From Fistulifera solaris (taxonomy: Eukaryota), in contig AP026124.1 in NCBI GenBank assembly GCA_030295235.1, positions 2,170,001 to 2,234,000 of the forward strand: a DNA stretch of 64,000 bases, in the 5' to 3' direction. Shown here in pieces: positions 40,286 to 48,749 of this stretch. The translations under genes and the position numbers were made by a program. Below the pieces are notes generated by a model. The model was not told where the DNA came from and searched no databases. It saw only the letters and a program-made list of their open reading frames with translations. The stretch's first letter is position 1; each line of letters starts with the position of its first letter.

Positions 40286-40921
40286 AATTGTTTTGACAAA
40301 AAAAGGAGAAATTCGACAACCATCCTTGTTTGCATACCTGGTAGATGATACATAATACACTACTACTAGTAGAGCCTTTACCCCTTTCACCCGCCACTTT
40401 CCGATCTTGATCGCTGCGACGAAAGAAGCGCGAGTATTCCAAGAAATTTACTCCAGAGTTGTGTATTTTATTGTTTGAGAAAATGTTATTCTAATATACA
40501 AAGTAGAATGAGCGAATCATCGCTTGAATCCGTTTTTTCGTGCAAATGGCAGAAACGACTTACCGATCCGCGATTGAAAAGCAATCGGGACTGTGAATTT
40601 TCGCGGTTCTTTTAGCCGTTAATTGATGGGGCGGCCAACCGTTATAGAAAAGGTTCGATTGTGTGCATGGGACGCAGCGCAATCCCATTTCACGCCGGCC
40701 GCTCTTTCGCACGATTGCAAGCGATTTGCTCGTTGGACTGTTTATCAAATAGTGAACCAGCTACGGTACTTGTTGTTCTTTGTGACACCGAAACAAAATC
40801 TCCCCCCCCTTTTTGCTGCACCGCTATCGTTCCCACAAATCTTCTTTTTCGTTGATAGCACGATTGCCCACAAAATCGAACGATTGATTTGTAAATAATA
40901 AGAAAGATATCCCAGCAAAAG

Positions 40922-42399
40922 ATGCACTGCCCCAATTTATCTTCGTCATCTACTTTAGTGGATACAAGAGACGAAATCAAACAGGATTCTTCTGCCATAA
41001 TGAAGACACGCTCGCAAGAATGGTGGAAACGACAACTGGTCCAACGATCGACGGCTACACTGAATGACGATATGGAACGACTGTTTTCGGAATCCCCCTT
41101 TTGAGTGCACATCCATCACGTGATGTGGCCAAGTTTGATCGATCAGAAATTGTCACGGGCCGCGTTTTGGGAAAAGGCGGATTCTCGGTGGTCTACGAAG
41201 TGATTGGCTTTGATTTGGATTCGTTCGTTTCTCGTTCACTCCGTCCCGAAGAACGCAAGTTACGAGAAGCCTACGCGAGAAATGTTTTAGATCCCAAGAC
41301 GAAACGAAGTCGGTTTGTGATTAAGTACTTAAGACCAGAGACAGTCCGCCATGGCTTTCGTGAAGCGGCGAATGATCTGGTGTTAGAAGGCGAGTTCTTG
41401 TCGAGATTGCAACATGAAAACATTATTGCACTGCATGGTCTTCCCGTGAATGGAGTCAATGCGTGGCAAGATGGATTACATGATGGCTACTTTTTGATTT
41501 TGGATCGACTTACAGAAACGTTGGATCACTGCTTACACAACAAGATTGCCAAAGCGCCTTCCGAACGGAAGAAAATGGAATATGCGCTCGACCTGGCTTC
41601 GGCTATCGAATATCTGCACAGCCATGGAATTGTTTTTCGCGATTTGAAACCAAGTAATCTTGGGTTCAGCTCGACCGGTCGAATTCAGTTGTACGATTTT
41701 GGTTTGGCTCGTGAACTTCCAGGCGATGGCAACGATTTATACGAGATGTCGGGTGTCGGCACGAGACGATACATGGCGCCCGAAGTCATTCGTGAGCGGC
41801 TCTACAATGCCAAAGTGGACGTGTATAGCTGGTCCATGGTAGTGTGGCAACTCTTTACGCATTGCAAGCCCTATTCTTTGTATTCTCCGGTAGAACACGC
41901 CCGTCATGTTTGCATCGGAGGAGAGCGACCACCCTTGGGGAAGGGACTCGATATTCACGGCGACTTGAAGGCTTCGCTCTGTCTTTCACCTTTCCTTAAG
42001 GATCTTTTAGCGCATTGTTGGGACGAATCAATACGTGATCGATGTTCCATGTCGGATGTACGACGTCGTATGCAATGCGAAATGGCGAGAATGAACGGCT
42101 CATTCTTTTACACAGAAGCTACACCGGAAGGTATTGAAGTGACAATCTCTTTCGACCTTGGGTCAACTCGACAATTCGATCGGGACGAAGACAATAATAC
42201 TGTCTCTCTTACAGAAAAGTTTGGCGAAAGTTTTGACGAAACACAAAGCTCACTGTCTTTAGGACATCTTGTGATGAAAGAAAGCGTTTCGGATACTGAG
42301 GGCTGCTATCCTGTACTTAAGAGCGTTCTCTCCGGCAGCACATGTTCTACAAGCAGCCTCAGTGCGGCGGATAGTTTCCTTGGCACCTACATTATTTAA
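40922..42399 (+). CDS. Protein kinase (TKL-like, diatom-type); frameshift near 41100
   Basis: LGKGGFSVV, FVIK, FRDLKPSN, DFGLA, GTRRYMAPE, DVYSW. Confidence 0.9.
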
Positions 42400-42538
42400 T
42401 GCAACATTTCATAATCTTAACAGATCTGTTTCTTTTACAATAAACTGAATTTTTCCGACAACTTGGAGTAATACTTTTTCTCTAATGGTTTATTTTCTAC
42501 GGTGTATAGAGACAGGCGGCCGTCAGTGTGGTCCTTCT

Positions 42539-44518
42539 TCATTCGCTGGGTGCATCCGGCTGGTTGCAAGGGTGCGAATCCTTAAACCAGGGATGTTGCT
42601 GGCACAACGCATCGATTTGAACCAATGTCGGGCAAATTGTATCCACATCGACGTTAAAGCGTCTTGCGTTGTACATTTGCGGAACCATGACCGCATCTAC
42701 AATTGACGGAGAGAACGTACCGAGACAATATGGACCCTGGCGTTGGCGCTTTGTCACCAAGGTCTCCAGCGCAGCTAGTCCTTTCTCATTTGCGGCTCGG
42801 CCAAGTTCCTCGGCGGTTATCGTTCCGTTCGACTGTTTCTCTAGCTCTCTTGTGTAGGGAAAATTCTGCATCGGATGAGTCCCAGAATTGATGATTTGCA
42901 CCATTTCCAATGCGGCATAGCGATCACGGCCATCTTTGGGCGTCAAACAGCGCTTGTGCGGGAATTCGTTTTCGAGGAAATCAATGATTGCTAGACTCTG
43001 ACTCAAACGAAGTGTCTTTCCTGTTTGACTGTCAGTAACTTCGAGCAACGGAATCTGCCCCATCGGACTTTTCGCAACAAATTCCGGTTTGGTTTGCTCC
43101 GCTTCCAACAAGTTTACGGGGATCGTGACATAAGAAATACCTTTTGCCGCCAGCGCGATGCGCACTCGCCAGGTCGAAGAGGATCGCCAGTAGCCGTAGA
43201 GCTTAAATTCGGTGTACCGCTCGTTTGGAGTGACGCAGCAAGCTGGCAACTTGGTGTTGGCCGGCAATACTTTTCCACTGCAATCCCCAAATCCAACTCT
43301 ACCACCGTTGGGAATCTGACAATGACCACGCATCACTACAGTGTCACCATCCTTGAGAAACTTTCGAACTTCGTCACCTACGTTGACTTCCTTGCTACCC
43401 TTCCAGGACAATTCTAGCATACTTCCGTATGAGTCCGGAGTTTGTCCCGATATCGTACCACTACCCAACAAATCTCCGGCTCGCATGATGCATCCCGATA
43501 CCGCATGATGAACCAGCTGTTGTGCCGGATTCCAATACATGTTCTTGAAATTCGACGTGGAAATGGTGTGTGGTTGGGTCTGAACTTCACTTTGAATGGC
43601 CACCGTCAGACAAATATCGTACGAAGAATACGTGGGATCTTGTAAATACTCCAAGGGGACCGGATCTTCCTGTTTTCCGGCCGATGTCGGAGCCGTAAAG
43701 GGTTCCAGTGCGGCGGTCATGACAATCCACGGACTGATCGTTGTTGCAAAGTTCTTGGCGGTAAAGGGTCCTAACGGTACATATTCCCACTTTTGTAAGT
43801 CGCGCGCCGACCAATCATTCATCAACACAAATCCAAAGACACGTTCCTTGGCTTGCTCCATGGTGAGCGGTCCACTGGTATTGGGAGGACCTCCCACGAC
43901 GGCCGCCATTTCCAATTCGAAATCCAGTAAACGACAAGGCCCATACACACTGCCTTGATTCGGATCCTCCGCATCTTTCTGCAGCTGCCCACAGGGACGC
44001 ACGACATCGTGGCCACTCACAAAGACGGTACTCGAACGTCCGTGATACCCGACGGGAAGATGCAACCAGTTGGGTTGCAGGGCATTGTCTTTTCCGCGAA
44101 ACATGATCCCCACATTGGTGGCATGCTCGCGACTCGAATAAAAGTCCGTGTAATCTCCGATACTAACCGGCAAATGGCATTGGACAGTTTGCACATTGTG
44201 AAAGGCTGCCGCACACAGTGGTGAGGAAAGTTGTTCTTGCGAGAAGAGTTCGTGCAGTCTCTGTCGAAAAGCCCGCCAGACTGGACGAGGATGTTCGATG
44301 AAACTGTTCAAGGTGGATTGGTTGAAGACATTGCAGGAAAGACCCGGAACTGTTTCAAATAAACCCGCTTCTTCGAGTACCGACAAATCGATTACAGTAT
44401 TCCCCAAAATAGTAGCACATCTCGGAGGCGCGTCCTGAAAAGAAACAACCCCGAGCGGCAAATTTGACAAGGAAAAGTCCGAGTCGTCCGGAATGTTGAT
44501 GCCGCAACAAGTCGTCAT
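42539..44518 (-). CDS. FAH: Fumarylacetoacetase fused to maleylacetoacetate isomerase (GST zeta)
   Basis: One uninterrupted 659-aa ORF. FAH motifs IGDYTDFYSSREHATNVG, LDFELE, NDWSARD, GPFTAKNF, GDLLGSGTISG; then GSTZ motifs LYGYWRSSSTWRVRIAL, PMGQIP, SQSLAII, SGTHPMQN, PQMYNARRF, HPCNQPD. Confidence 0.95.
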   Translation of the reverse strand: MTTCCGINIPDDSDFSLSNLPLGVVSFQDAPPRCATILGNTVIDLSVLEEAGLFETVPGLSCNVFNQSTLNSFIEHPRPVWRAFRQRLHELFSQEQLSSPLCAAAFHNVQTVQCHLPVSIGDYTDFYSSREHATNVGIMFRGKDNALQPNWLHLPVGYHGRSSTVFVSGHDVVRPCGQLQKDAEDPNQGSVYGPCRLLDFELEMAAVVGGPPNTSGPLTMEQAKERVFGFVLMNDWSARDLQKWEYVPLGPFTAKNFATTISPWIVMTAALEPFTAPTSAGKQEDPVPLEYLQDPTYSSYDICLTVAIQSEVQTQPHTISTSNFKNMYWNPAQQLVHHAVSGCIMRAGDLLGSGTISGQTPDSYGSMLELSWKGSKEVNVGDEVRKFLKDGDTVVMRGHCQIPNGGRVGFGDCSGKVLPANTKLPACCVTPNERYTEFKLYGYWRSSSTWRVRIALAAKGISYVTIPVNLLEAEQTKPEFVAKSPMGQIPLLEVTDSQTGKTLRLSQSLAIIDFLENEFPHKRCLTPKDGRDRYAALEMVQIINSGTHPMQNFPYTRELEKQSNGTITAEELGRAANEKGLAALETLVTKRQRQGPYCLGTFSPSIVDAVMVPQMYNARRFNVDVDTICPTLVQIDALCQQHPWFKDSHPCNQPDAPSE

Positions 44519-45008
44519 ACTTAGCTTTTCTTTTGTGGTGATGCCGTTGCACTTGGGAGAGACGATTCAAGTTACAGAATGATTCGATTGAAAGCCTTTA
44601 CAATTGAGAACAACCATGTCAAAAGATGTCCTTCTCGCTCTCTCGTGATGTTTTCTTTTTTTCTTTTTTCCGAACGAACTCTCCCTCTACTCTCTTTCCT
44701 CATTGTCAGTCTGTCCACCCTTCCACCTGTTGTGCCCCTACCTGACCATGTCTTCCGGTTCTGTCACTAAGTAAATAAGACGGTTCCTACTATCTAACTA
44801 AATGATAACGTTGAAATTAGATCTGTACATAAAAACAGATTCAATAGAGATTTGGGTACCGTGTTATGATACCAGTGTACTCACTACCCTATAAAACACG
44901 CCTGTCGGTCTCTCTCTTTCATTCAAACCGCAAACGAAGCATTGCATGATTGCAACGAAAACAAACACTTGTTATACGTCTACGATTGTTGCAAGAAACA
45001 AAAGAACC

Positions 45009-47073
45009 ATGGAAGAAGAAGAAGGAATCGAGTCCGTTCTAGCCACTTTGCAGCCGTTGCGGGACTTGGCAAAGAATTGGGATATCGATATCGCTACATG
45101 GTGAGATGATTCTTTGCAGGGAACGGAGTTGTGATCCTTTCCTTTCGAAATTTTGCTGCTCTTATTGATATAAATACTCGACTAACCCATAACTCTTGTT
45201 TTCTTTGATTCATTCTAGCCTGGAAGAATATTTGCACGATTTGGTAGGACATATACCAGGAGCGGAAGATCAGTTGACGATCGATGGACCTTCCCTGAAC
45301 TTTGCCCAAGCGGCTCTTGTGCTACAAAATTCCTCCAATATTTACAGTCGCAAAGTCGAATACCTGTATGCACTCGTCTATAAATCGCTGGAAGAAAACT
45401 TTCAGGTACAAAATGGCAAAGTCGTCCGACCGCGACACGCCGATCCGGACATTGATGACTTTTTAGCGTTTGATCCGTACCAAGAGTTCTTGCTGCTCGA
45501 CGATGTCTTGCCCACCGATGATTCACCGGATAATCGTAAAATTGATCTCGTGGAAGAGAAAGCGGAGGAATCCACACCGGGACGCTCGATGACCCGTCTA
45601 TCGTTGACGGAAAATAAAAGTGTGACGGCCATTAATGATGTTGCGTACAAGACGTTATTGGATCCACACGGCAGTACACTTCGTCTTTTGAAAGCACCAG
45701 TGGCCGAAGATGGATGGTTACGATTACCTGGAACAAATTCGGGAAAAATACAGTCTTCTTCGACTCCCTTGTCTCCTCTTCCGCAAAGTCTTCAGGAACC
45801 CAGTGGAGAAGAAAGTATGGAAATGGAAAGGGGTTTCGGGGAATTTAATGGTGGAAATGACAACGATAATGATGATGATGACGGTCCCGGATTCTTCATG
45901 AATGATGATGATGAGGTGGAGTTACCTGTAGCAACGCAGCAATTGGCTTTTGCCAAGCCGGCCAGACACGTGACTTTCGCGGAATCTGAACCAGCACCCA
46001 AACAAGATCCCTGGGCTCTCCTCGATCCGCATTCGGTCGATTCTGTCACGAAAGCCAAGCCGTTGAAAATAGGCAAGTCCATTCGATTGCCAAAAGGAAT
46101 CACTGAGCCACCATCCGCATGCGTGACGGGAGCCCGAACTCGACGTATCATGCGTCCCAACAATCCTACATCGCAGGCTAACACGGCAACAGGAAAGCGC
46201 CGATTCGATCCCACCGAATCTTTTAACAGCCAATTTGCATTCGGAAAGCACTCTGTGAACGACGACGAGACCGTGCCTTTCTTGCCGCTTCAAGGCTTGG
46301 CGTTTGGCGATGAATTCACGTATGTCTACCAAGCGACGACGAAACGACTTGCTGCTCAGCGAAGAGAACTTCGTCAACAGGAACAGTCAAAAGCAGCTCA
46401 ATCCAACTTTGACGAAGAGGACGATGAGGATCAGTATGGTGATGGATTTGTCTTTGGCTATCCTCAGGAAGGGAATACAGAACTGATGTCCTTGGATGAA
46501 ATGTACAATCGAGAGAATGGTAAGTTTATGCAACTGCGATCGATATCACGCATTTAGCATTTTGATCGAATACTAACTATTCCTCCACAAGATGACGCAC
46601 ACACAGGGGCTACTTTCGAAGAACTATGCCGAGCGCACTTGCAAGCTTTTGCCCGAGAAGCAGAAAAGTACGCGTCTGAAACAAAATTGACGCAAAGGGT
46701 AGATCAGTGGCAACAAAGACTGCAGCCATTGTTACAAGAAGAGGAAGAACGTCCTGTCTTTGATATTTATGAATATGGACATCAGGTAATCGAATCATTG
46801 GAAAATGAGATCACTAAGATCCCTCCTGATACGAACGAGAAGCCAAGCTTGATTGTCGACTTTAGCCGAGTTACTCGTCAAAAACCGAATTTTGAAGTAT
46901 GTCGTTTGTTCTTGGCGAGTTTAAGTTTGACCAATAGCGGCAACGTCCGTTTTGTCGAGACATCGGCCGACGGTAACTCTCTAAGCATCGAGCTGCTAAA
47001 CCGTGAAGTTGAATTGCCCACAGAAAACTACCTGGCCCCTAGTGTTCGAGAGACGAGTAGCATGGTAATGTGA
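45009..47073 (+). CDS. NCAPH2: Condensin II kleisin subunit H2, 3 exons
   Basis: Introns 45101-45218 and 46520-46591. LQPLRDLAKNWDIDIA, NFAQAALVLQNSSNIYSRKVEYLY, FDIYEYG, EVCRLFLASLSLTNSGNV. Confidence 0.93.
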
Positions 47074-47165: not shown

Positions 47166-48106
47166 CTAGTCACGAATGAACGCATTCTTGTATGCATTCG
47201 TAATAGACTCAATAGATAATAGAATGATCATGGCATGGGGCGCGCAGCGGCCATAGTAGGCACTGAACGAGCTGAAAAATCCCATGGGTCCTTCCTTCTT
47301 AAAAATCTGGACGGAACAATCGATGACACCCTTGTATGGCATAACACCGGTCATTGGATCTGGCTTCTGAGCCATTAAGCGCGATTTGATCAAATCAAAT
47401 GGAAGACTGAACAAAGCCGCGGTGAAACCGGCAATCGCCGATGCACCGAGTTGGGTCGGTACACTGGGTCCTTTCGTCATGGGATCATTGAGCAACGCCG
47501 CCACCATCTCCTTGGCTTGATCGTAGCACGCCATCATGCCGACGTTCATGGACATTCCGCGTAAAACATTCGGCGCCAATCCCTTGTACAGGGCCGCGAC
47601 ACCTTCCTCCTTGGCCGTTCGGAATAACGCATCGAAGACATTCTTGTAGTTTCTACGGTCTTTGGGCTCGGCCATGCCGTCCGATTGCAGTCGCACCAAA
47701 GCGATATCGAACGGCGTACCGATACATACAGCAATTGAGCCACTCGCCATACCCGAAAGAGTTTTTTGCAAAAATTGATGGGCTGGCCGTGATTCCACTC
47801 AACCAGTTTGTCCGAGAAAGAACGATGCAATCCGATGCGGGCTGTTCCGTACACGAGCTGACGACCAATTGCGGCATCCACACCTTTATATATGGACATG
47901 AACCCGTCGTTCTGGATGAGATTACCGAGAACTGTCGTGAAACCAGGGACGGGCTTGCCTGGATTCAATTGACCGTACAATTGCATGCGCACTTTCGCTA
48001 AATCCATCGGATGAATTACGACAGAGGCGCACGTGGCCGCGGCACCTCCACATACAAATGGCTGGAGTGTTTTAGCAACGGAACTGGATTTGGGAGAAGT
48101 TGCCAT
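47166..48106 (-). CDS. Mitochondrial 2-oxoglutarate/malate (dicarboxylate) carrier, SLC25 family; frameshift near 47785
   Basis: Three carrier signatures PMDLAKVRMQ, PFDIALVRLQ and PFDLIKSRL; also RQLVYGTARIG, RRNYKNVFDAL, RCAPHAM. Confidence 0.9.
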
Positions 48107-48749
48107 GATGAAGGAAGATTCGTTCATGGGTGGTTTTGTTTTTTTTTCACTCTATTGTGACCAAGAAAATTTTCTTGTTCCGATGAACTTAAAGTTCCTG
48201 AAGGATCCGGGCGCTTTTCCTCTACCCAGCGATGAGACGGACAGACACTATTCGTAAAAAAAGCTACACGGTGGTCATTGCTCAATGTACAAAGCATCCA
48301 CTGTGCCATCGGAAAGGGAAGGCCAGGACGAGGAACGGACAGGCGGATAAGATGACGTACGTGTTTCTTGTTTGTTTTTACTAACAGTACCTGGTACGGA
48401 GTACTACAAAATTCAAGACTATCTTGACTCCTCTTGATTGGTTCCACGATAAGTGGTGCGACACGCTGTCCTTTCAACCACCGTTTTCGTCGGTATGAAC
48501 TTTGAAGATATTGAAAACCATGTCATTGTCTTCAAGCGAATACATTGAACGCTGTTGAGACTTGTCTCCCTTGCAACAAATAAAAGCCTTTCGATATTTA
48601 TTAACTGGATACTCCTAGAAGGTAAGCGTTGTTGTGATCCCATGAAATGAACGAGCGAGCGTAAAGGAGGAGGAATACTGAATACTTTGCACATTGTTAC
48701 TCCTTTCGTCATGCAACTTTTTTCAGGTATCACCAAAAAACGTGACAGC

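Follow-up and report, generated by a model that had tools for sequence, protein, structure and literature searches.

The window analysed here is a 64,000-nucleotide (nt) stretch of the Fistulifera solaris genome (contig AP026124.1 of assembly GCA_030295235.1, positions 2,170,001 to 2,234,000 of the forward strand). On its minus strand we identified a gene whose product carries a fumarylacetoacetase (FAH) followed by a maleylacetoacetate isomerase (MAAI) of the zeta class of glutathione S-transferases (GST). The open reading frame (ORF) listing and the translation showed one frame of 659 amino acids (aa), running from ATG to stop without an internal stop. No ATG of the ORF precedes the one at 44518, where homologous proteins also begin (median offset 0). 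Our analysis showed that FAH and MAAI are joined in a single chain and that this is a genuine fusion.

Gene structure and transcript

Both halves were identified by curated equivalog profiles of NCBIfam. The fumarylacetoacetase profile TIGR01266 matches residues 7–420 (43259–44500) with 545 bits against a cut-off of 375.3, over profile positions 3–419 of 420. The maleylacetoacetate isomerase profile TIGR01262 matches residues 439–656 with 186.3 bits against a cut-off of 171.05, over positions 1–210 of 211. In a search against PDB sequences, residues 7–421 aligned with residues 6–418 of mouse FAH (1qco, E 1.7e-137), and residues 438–657 aligned both with 4igj, which was deposited as MAAI (E 4.4e-42 to 6.1e-43), and with human GSTZ1 (1fw1, E 8.8e-33 to 1.2e-33). 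None of the 55 matched PDB sequences is a chain spanning both halves.

A previous sequence-only reading of this DNA had described a complete FAH and a complete GST-zeta in a single intronless 659-aa ORF. This description was borne out, as both equivalogs score above their cut-offs, the coordinates given for the domains are right within a few codons, the frame is open, and the transcript contigs described below cover the coding sequence without joints or gaps. The same reading expected a linker of about 20 aa between the two enzymes; the linker is present, but it measures 16 aa. It also suggested a domain scan for the families FAA_hydrolase, GST_N and GST_C. FAA_hydrolase and GST_N (residues 438–516) were identified, but no GST_C family was found in the 659-aa protein at E≤0.01, a point against the main reading. 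The C-terminal helical GST domain is instead indicated by TIGR01262 and by the 1fw1 and 4igj alignments, which run to the C-terminus. In the AlphaFold2 model, the GST half has helices from 508 to 647, with a predicted local distance difference test (pLDDT) score of about 88–98.

These matches also bear on the question of which pathway the protein serves. A different ring-cleavage pathway, such as that of gentisate, would require a maleylpyruvate isomerase and a fumarylpyruvate hydrolase. JGI labels many of the nearest bacterial stand-alone relatives of the GST half as 'maleylpyruvate isomerase', and this half also matches two solved enzymes of that kind (2v6k and 2jl4) at E 1e-25 to 1e-26. However, the MAAI structures outscore them, and the hydrolase half combines its high score on the fumarylacetoacetase equivalog and its match to mouse FAH with the FAH-specific family PF09298. 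Moreover, in the parts covered of two expression studies, the orthologues of Phaeodactylum and Seminavis change expression alongside other genes of phenylalanine and tyrosine (Phe/Tyr) catabolism (PMC7780933, PMC6688387). We therefore consider a gentisate-type role very unlikely.

Four small runs of one study (X1–X4) were mapped as contigs on window positions 40500–46500. X1 covers the entire 6 kb, as expected of DNA. The cover of X2–X4 is limited to about 40840–44615, plus a trace of X2 at 45726–45926. In the 44520–44720 bin X3 has no cover and X4 has 0.08, and from 44721 on X2–X4 show none save the X2 trace. The drop lies within about 100–200 nt upstream of the ATG, and the stretches upstream of about 44720 without X2–X4 cover were not taken as a sign of silence. 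T-run loose ends before 42463 in X2 and X4 mark the 3′ end of a minus-strand transcript, and an A-run loose end behind 42444 in X2 and X3 marks that of a convergent plus-strand kinase gene. This indicates that X2–X4 hold polyadenylated RNA. The poly(A) site of the fusion gene is located 76 nt past the TGA and 26 nt past the AATAAA.

No joints that would indicate introns were found among the mapped contigs of X1–X4 over the gene. One X2 contig (record 13, 43134–43375) bridges the linker with 0 differences and 0 gaps, and extends beyond it by 74 nt towards MAAI and by 120 nt towards FAH. The segment 43200–43280, for which the sequence-only reading had called for spanning reads, is thus bridged by a contig of a poly(A)-bearing run. 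Neither a stop nor an insertion or deletion in the linker was seen, and the sole minus-strand poly(A) site seen follows the MAAI stop. The fusion gene is therefore expressed. Two points weigh against the transcript evidence. First, the runs are catalogued as 'RNA? (a guess)', and it is by their poly(A)/poly(T) ends that X2–X4 were recognised as RNA. Second, no single contig of X1–X4 spans the whole 2.1-kb transcript. Since the contig pieces overlap or adjoin and there is a single poly(A) site, we infer a full-length messenger RNA.

Features of the fusion gene (positions in the window; all on the minus strand)
Feature	Position	Strand	Details
Whole FAH-MAAI fusion coding sequence	42539..44518	-	659 aa plus stop TGA at 42539-42541
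FAH N-terminal domain FAA_hydrolase_N, PF09298, residues 19-117	44168..44464	-	Pfam 81.7 bits (cut-off 25)
FAH catalytic C-terminal domain FAA_hydrolase, PF01557, residues 124-398	43325..44149	-	Pfam 128.1 bits (cut-off 23.9)
Inter-domain linker, residues 422-437, 16 aa	43208..43255	-	Gap between PDB matches 7-421 and 438-657
Zeta-class GST/maleylacetoacetate isomerase domain, residues 438-657	42548..43207	-	TIGR01262, 4igj, human GSTZ1
Zeta-class active-site motif YWRSSSTW, residues 443-450	43169..43192	-	Alignment to 1fw1
3′ untranslated region	42463..42538	-	AATAAA at 42489-42494; poly(A) addition site 42463
5′ untranslated region, minimum extent	44519..44615	-	X2 record 16 (44319-44615), about 97 nt upstream of ATG

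Distribution and origin of the fused architecture

A search of diatoms and other stramenopiles for the same architecture, as the sequence-only reading had suggested, was successful. With residues 380–659 as the query, a word-indexed search returned 211 proteins, and all 120 of the matches listed carry both the FAA_hydrolase and the GST_N families. Fusions named in this search belong to Fistulifera solaris, Mayamaea, Seminavis (P0029 and P0067), Epithemia, Cylindrotheca and Synedropsis. The F. solaris database entry (P0002, 659 aa) is 94% identical to the window protein (P0001). When 1.84 billion cluster representatives were scanned exhaustively and without a profile, about 20 clusters at 50% identity proved to span both halves, and the most distant of these (40% identity) contains a Stauroneis transcript.

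When the isomerase half alone was used as the query, fragments of fusions came first, followed by stand-alone MAAIs of Myxococcota (43–45% identity) and Triparma. Triparma is a member of the sister group of diatoms, and the stand-alone MAAIs of T. laevis and T. strigata are 253–256 aa long. A Triparma MAAI was then used as the query against longer proteins only, giving 134 matches, with FAA_hydrolase in 117 of the 120 listed. The fusions found in this way included those of the centric diatoms Thalassiosira sp. AJA248-18 and Leptocylindrus danicus, and, outside the diatoms, those of the dictyochophyte Pseudopedinella elastica and the chrysophyte Paraphysomonas and one dinoflagellate record, Effrenium voratum.

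A total of 489 proteins were gathered. Parts of both domains are present in 234 of them, and 133 are full-length fusions. The linker of the latter is 14–47 aa long (median 20, one aberrant value set aside) and variable in sequence. After removal of one aberrant row, the remaining 132 rows were aligned (alignment A1). The window protein, with its domain order from FAH to MAAI and its 16-aa linker, fits this family, which is already present in NCBI, UniRef, EukProt and MMETSP under the name 'fumarylacetoacetase'. The sequence-only reading had implied that the fusion is a novelty. Its novelty is weaker than that, as the architecture is widespread in ochrophyte algae. No paper describing or assaying the protein as a bifunctional enzyme was found in the literature searched, whose cover did not extend to subscription journals.

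Seminavis robusta has two fused-type entries (P0029 and P0067), a 484-aa protein bearing the name 'Maleylacetoacetate isomerase' and a 704-aa protein. Their MAAI halves sit in different parts of the MAAI tree described below, so any duplication of the fusion in this species looks old.

Annotation of the family has raised the question of whether adjacent FAH and MAAI genes were read as one through an error of gene model or assembly. In the one paper found to touch on the fusion, Pan et al. (2020) noted that Phaeodactylum Phatr3_EG02215 is annotated both as a fumarylacetoacetase and as a GST, with a GST part having the MAAI motif, and judged that it 'may actually be a compound of two genes' (PMC7780933, in the part covered). 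In supplementary Table S1 of the same paper, FAH and MAAI of T. pseudonana stand under two separate model identifiers. Many shorter database models of 369–580 aa, having only part of FAH together with the GST, were also found among the matches listed. However, in the window the frame is open across the junction, a contig of a poly(A)-bearing run bridges it, and the only minus-strand poly(A) site seen comes after the MAAI stop. The junction is 14–47 residues long in 133 full-length homologues, from independent genomes and transcriptomes, and the MAAI part has no conserved start context of its own in the linker rows of A1. Many of the fused homologues are ORFs derived from transcriptomes (MMETSP, EukProt), an independent argument against a merging of gene models. 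An artefact is thus extremely unlikely.

The origin of the fusion was analysed with a tree for each domain. For the FAH domain, a quick maximum-likelihood tree (LG+G4) was built from 52 of 252 rows. In it, a branch with a Shimodaira–Hasegawa-like approximate likelihood ratio test (SH-aLRT) value of 98 parts 14 of the 16 fusion rows, plus an entry of Epipyxis, from 35 stand-alone rows. The Epipyxis (chrysophyte) entry inside the fusion clade is 599 aa long and has a non-MAAI tail. The MAAI tree was built from 51 of 343 rows (those under 50% identity plus named rows) and midpoint-rooted, its sampling being without animal or plant GSTZ. It is poorly resolved, and Triparma, a stand-alone eukaryotic group of 255–260 aa and Myxococcota are interleaved with the fusions.

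The two trees are most simply read as a single early fusion in ochrophytes that was later split or replaced in some lineages. Two results weigh against this reading. The fusion rows P0106 and P0131 fall outside the main fusion clade of the FAH tree, and the fusion label needs at least 5–6 changes on the MAAI tree, where stand-alone eukaryotic clades are nested among the fusions. A single origin is therefore not established, and the MAAI tree does not tell how many fusions or fissions took place, nor which way any transfer involving Myxococcota went.

Two further groups were observed in these trees. The Effrenium voratum record (P0481, Symbiodiniaceae) groups with Paraphysomonas in the FAH tree (SH-aLRT 90), which may reflect gene transfer, shared ancestry or contamination. 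Two metagenome proteins, P0473 (602 aa) and P0482 (596 aa), adjoin Myxococcota sequences in the MAAI tree and represent another fusion of the tyrosine pathway, with an N-terminal MAAI and a C-terminal 4-hydroxyphenylpyruvate dioxygenase. They score 227–228 bits on TIGR01262 and 269–270 bits on TIGR01263, the latter just below the cut-off of 277.

Active sites, predicted packing and function

In mouse FAH, we take the metal and catalytic positions to be Asp126, Glu199, Glu201, Asp233, His133 and Glu364, with Arg237, Gln240 and Lys253 in addition. These presumably act as metal ligands, a His/Glu pair and oxyanion-hole residues. Aligned with them in the window protein are D125, E201, E203, D235, H132, E369, R239, Q242 and K255, which are kept in 128, 132, 128, 132, 130, 128, 130, 130 and 130 of the 132 rows of A1, respectively. 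The glutathione-site residues are similarly conserved, with S446 in 131 rows, the cis-proline P490 in 132, Q507 in 131 and S508 in 132. Both halves thus look catalytically competent.

The alignment to 1fw1 places Ser446 at human GSTZ1 Ser14 and Ser448 at human Cys16. The sequence-only reading had drawn attention to the replacement of the Cys in the SSC motif. The replacement was confirmed but is not notable in itself, since Ser is the majority state at position 448 (92 of the 132 rows, with Cys in 29 others and Ala in 11). In the part covered of PMC3169399, the helix-1 motif of the zeta class is given as SSCx(H/W)RVRIAL, and the window sequence SSSTWRVRIAL agrees with it at every position save Cys to Ser.

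This change raises the possibility that the GST half is no longer an MAAI and has become a glutathione-binding, regulatory or other GST-type module. The same part of PMC3169399 states that the Cys adjoins the glutathione sulfur, without a disulfide, in GSTZ1 and in the C. immitis enzyme, and the TIGR01262 score is only modestly over its cut-off. However, position 448 varies in the family while the four glutathione-site residues are kept in nearly every row, and 4igj, the closest PDB relative, also has Ser-Ser-Ser at the motif. The Cys is therefore not universal in proteins filed as MAAI. Furthermore, the fusions of Thalassiosira and Pseudopedinella retain Cys, which suggests that the change arose inside an otherwise unchanged enzyme, and its fusion to FAH, which uses up its product, speaks for a continuing role in the pathway. 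Loss of isomerase function is accordingly highly improbable in our view. By comparison of these sequences, the Cys-to-Ser change is a common lineage variant rather than a sign of decay, and its majority among the fusions and presence in 4igj argue that it is not a defect.

The arrangement of the two halves was then predicted. AlphaFold2 with A1 gave a mean pLDDT of 93.2 and a predicted template modelling score (pTM) of 0.85. The linker blocks reached pLDDT values of 72 and 87. For the same sequence, the model in the Atlas has a pTM of 0.66. A defined two-domain arrangement is thus predicted. The only stretch of the AlphaFold2 model with pLDDT below 50 is residues 246–252 (about 43763–43783), in the highly conserved FAH loop YVPLGPF. 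This loop may need dimerisation or bound substrate to become ordered.

In a two-chain prediction, residues 1–425 and 433–659 were paired. The interaction prediction score from aligned errors (ipSAE) was 0.67 in three runs, and the best of 3 controls reached 0.03. The mark of 0.67 is reached by 51 of 78 solved complexes and by 2 of 108 mismatched pairs. At least 88% of the contacts agree among the runs, and the partner pLDDT is at least 91. On the FAH side the predicted interface consists of residues 31, 47, 50–52, 55, 61–63, 66, 100–101 and 103–104, all in the N-terminal domain; on the GST side it consists of the loop between helices 3 and 4 and the 594–603 loop. The isomerase domain is thus predicted to pack on the FAH N-terminal domain, and the model supports binding without showing it. 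The predicted interface is centred on Phe602, a one-residue insertion. Phe occupies this position in 154 of 230 fusion-type rows; among 113 stand-alone rows, 2 have it and 98 are gapped there.

Several results weigh against this packing. The predicted interface is small (33–36 contacts), and its residues are on average more variable than their own domains (mean entropy 2.37 versus 1.87 and 2.50 versus 1.81). Fusions outside the diatoms have Glu or a gap at Phe602, and the pattern is confounded by phylogeny. In addition, the complex predictor ran without alignments of the A1 type, and its language model may know the fusions as single chains, as an identical sequence is present in the Atlas. Ala51-Gly52 was also considered as a fusion-specific insertion in the interface and was rejected, because these residues are common in stand-alone FAHs, which likewise counts against the packing.

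Taken together, we consider it highly probable that the window carries an expressed nuclear gene of a raphid pennate diatom that encodes a bifunctional FAH-MAAI for the last two steps of homogentisate/tyrosine catabolism. The activities assigned to the two halves from their sequences are hydrolysis of fumarylacetoacetate and glutathione-dependent isomerisation of maleylacetoacetate. In the proposed mechanism, the C-terminal zeta-class GST domain with glutathione would convert maleylacetoacetate to fumarylacetoacetate, which the N-terminal fumarylacetoacetase would then hydrolyse to fumarate and acetoacetate. The fusion would fix a 1:1 ratio of the two activities, and it may limit the build-up of fumarylacetoacetate by proximity or channelling.

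A compact bifunctional unit is plausible from the predicted interface with its controls. That the fusion truly channels the intermediate, and does not just keep the two enzymes co-expressed and co-localised, appears possible but doubtful to us. A more elaborate version is, in our estimate, unlikely. In it, the isomerase would dock through the fusion-specific Phe602 onto the FAH N-terminal domain and hand fumarylacetoacetate over directly. The chain would adopt a new oligomeric state, because the FAH dimer and the GST dimer could not both form in the usual way, and the fusion would have arisen once in early ochrophytes with a myxobacterial-type isomerase, later being split or replaced, for example in Triparma. 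We know of no function assigned to the FAH N-terminal domain in stand-alone FAHs. Two further points tell against the proposed role. In mouse MAAI knock-out work, glutathione reportedly isomerises maleylacetoacetate without the enzyme, which weakens the need for tight coupling. In addition, no enzymatic data for any member of the fusion family were found in the literature searched.

The protein has a mass of about 73 kDa and is probably cytosolic. A plastid or mitochondrial location was rejected, because the alignment to mouse FAH begins at residue 7, so there is no N-terminal extension relative to it and no room for a presequence. An SKL-like C-terminal tripeptide is a peroxisomal signal; the C-terminus here is ...PDAPSE, and a peroxisomal location was likewise rejected. 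For the Phaeodactylum orthologue, no targeting peptide is predicted in supplementary Table S1 of PMC7780933, as far as that source was covered.

Neighbouring genes, significance and known systems

The neighbouring genes encode a kinase, an ankyrin protein, Nfu, a mitochondrial carrier, an HA-domain protein and a light-harvesting protein. None of these is related to tyrosine catabolism, and thus there is no pathway cluster. The kinase gene (ORF 41575–42399, plus strand) converges on the FAH-MAAI gene, and their 3′ ends nearly abut, with poly(A) sites at 42444 and 42463, 19 nt apart. The kinase ORF begins mid-domain (Pkinase profile positions 103–257), and its gene model may have to be corrected in frame or given an intron. 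Compared with the window, a single additional T follows 41098 in all four runs (others behind 40801 and 44656 occur in X1 only), which is likely a single-base difference of the assembly upstream of the kinase ORF. The overlapping minus-strand ORFs 47166–47750 and 47546–48127 both match Mito_carr, so 47166–48127 is probably one mitochondrial carrier gene broken by an intron or a frameshift.

Human tyrosinaemia type I has its basis in the accumulation of fumarylacetoacetate and maleylacetoacetate, both of them reactive electrophiles. A single chain of FAH and MAAI that occurs in nature offers a system for asking whether physical coupling benefits consecutive enzymes of this pathway. It also bears on the abilities of the FAH N-terminal domain and on how two obligate homodimers can be fitted into one chain. 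Protists often fuse enzymes that act in succession in a pathway, and to a specialist this one is neat rather than startling.

Its correct annotation closes the tyrosine-catabolic pathway in diatoms and related algae. Existing annotation names the gene just 'fumarylacetoacetase' or breaks it up into incomplete models, and the isomerase step is misassigned in diatom reconstructions as a result. In the part covered of PMC7780933, the step was assigned in Phaeodactylum to an unrelated GST. In Seminavis, two neighbouring 'fumarylacetoacetase' genes (Sro341_g121510 and Sro341_g121520) were reported to be down-regulated together with tyrosine aminotransferase, and the portion of that paper covered makes no mention of the GST half (PMC6688387).

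Compared with known FAHs (EC 3.7.1.2; mouse 1qco/1hyo, human 9sqs), the window protein shows a full-length match, both Pfam domains and conserved metal and catalytic residues. It differs in adding a C-terminal MAAI after the linker, whereas the solved FAHs are stand-alone proteins of 419–444 aa. Its isomerase half resembles MAAI/GSTZ1 (MaiA, EC 5.2.1.2; 4igj, 1fw1, 2cz2, 1e6b) over the full length (4igj residues 25–235, GSTZ1 residues 8–213) and shares with it the Ser-Ser start of helix 1, WRVRIAL, the cis-proline and the Gln-Ser residues of the glutathione site. The differences are Ser for Cys, as in 4igj, the Phe602 insertion, which is mostly missing in stand-alone forms, and the position behind FAH. 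This half is nearer to the MAAIs of Myxococcota (43–45% identity; 4igj, E 6e-43) than to human GSTZ1 (E 1e-33).

Phatr3_EG02215 and the 'fumarylacetoacetase' entries of Fistulifera solaris, Mayamaea, Seminavis, Epithemia and Thalassiosira sp., among others, have the same FAH-linker-MAAI build. There is no difference of kind between these fusions and the window gene, which is a new member of a fusion family that is visible in databases and biochemically uncharacterised. A further parallel is offered by the bacterial homogentisate operons hmgA-hmgB(fahA)-hmgC(maiA) of Pseudomonas, which we take to encode both enzymes as co-expressed neighbours for the same two consecutive steps. There the two enzymes are separate polypeptides, whereas in the diatom they form one polypeptide encoded by a eukaryotic nuclear gene.

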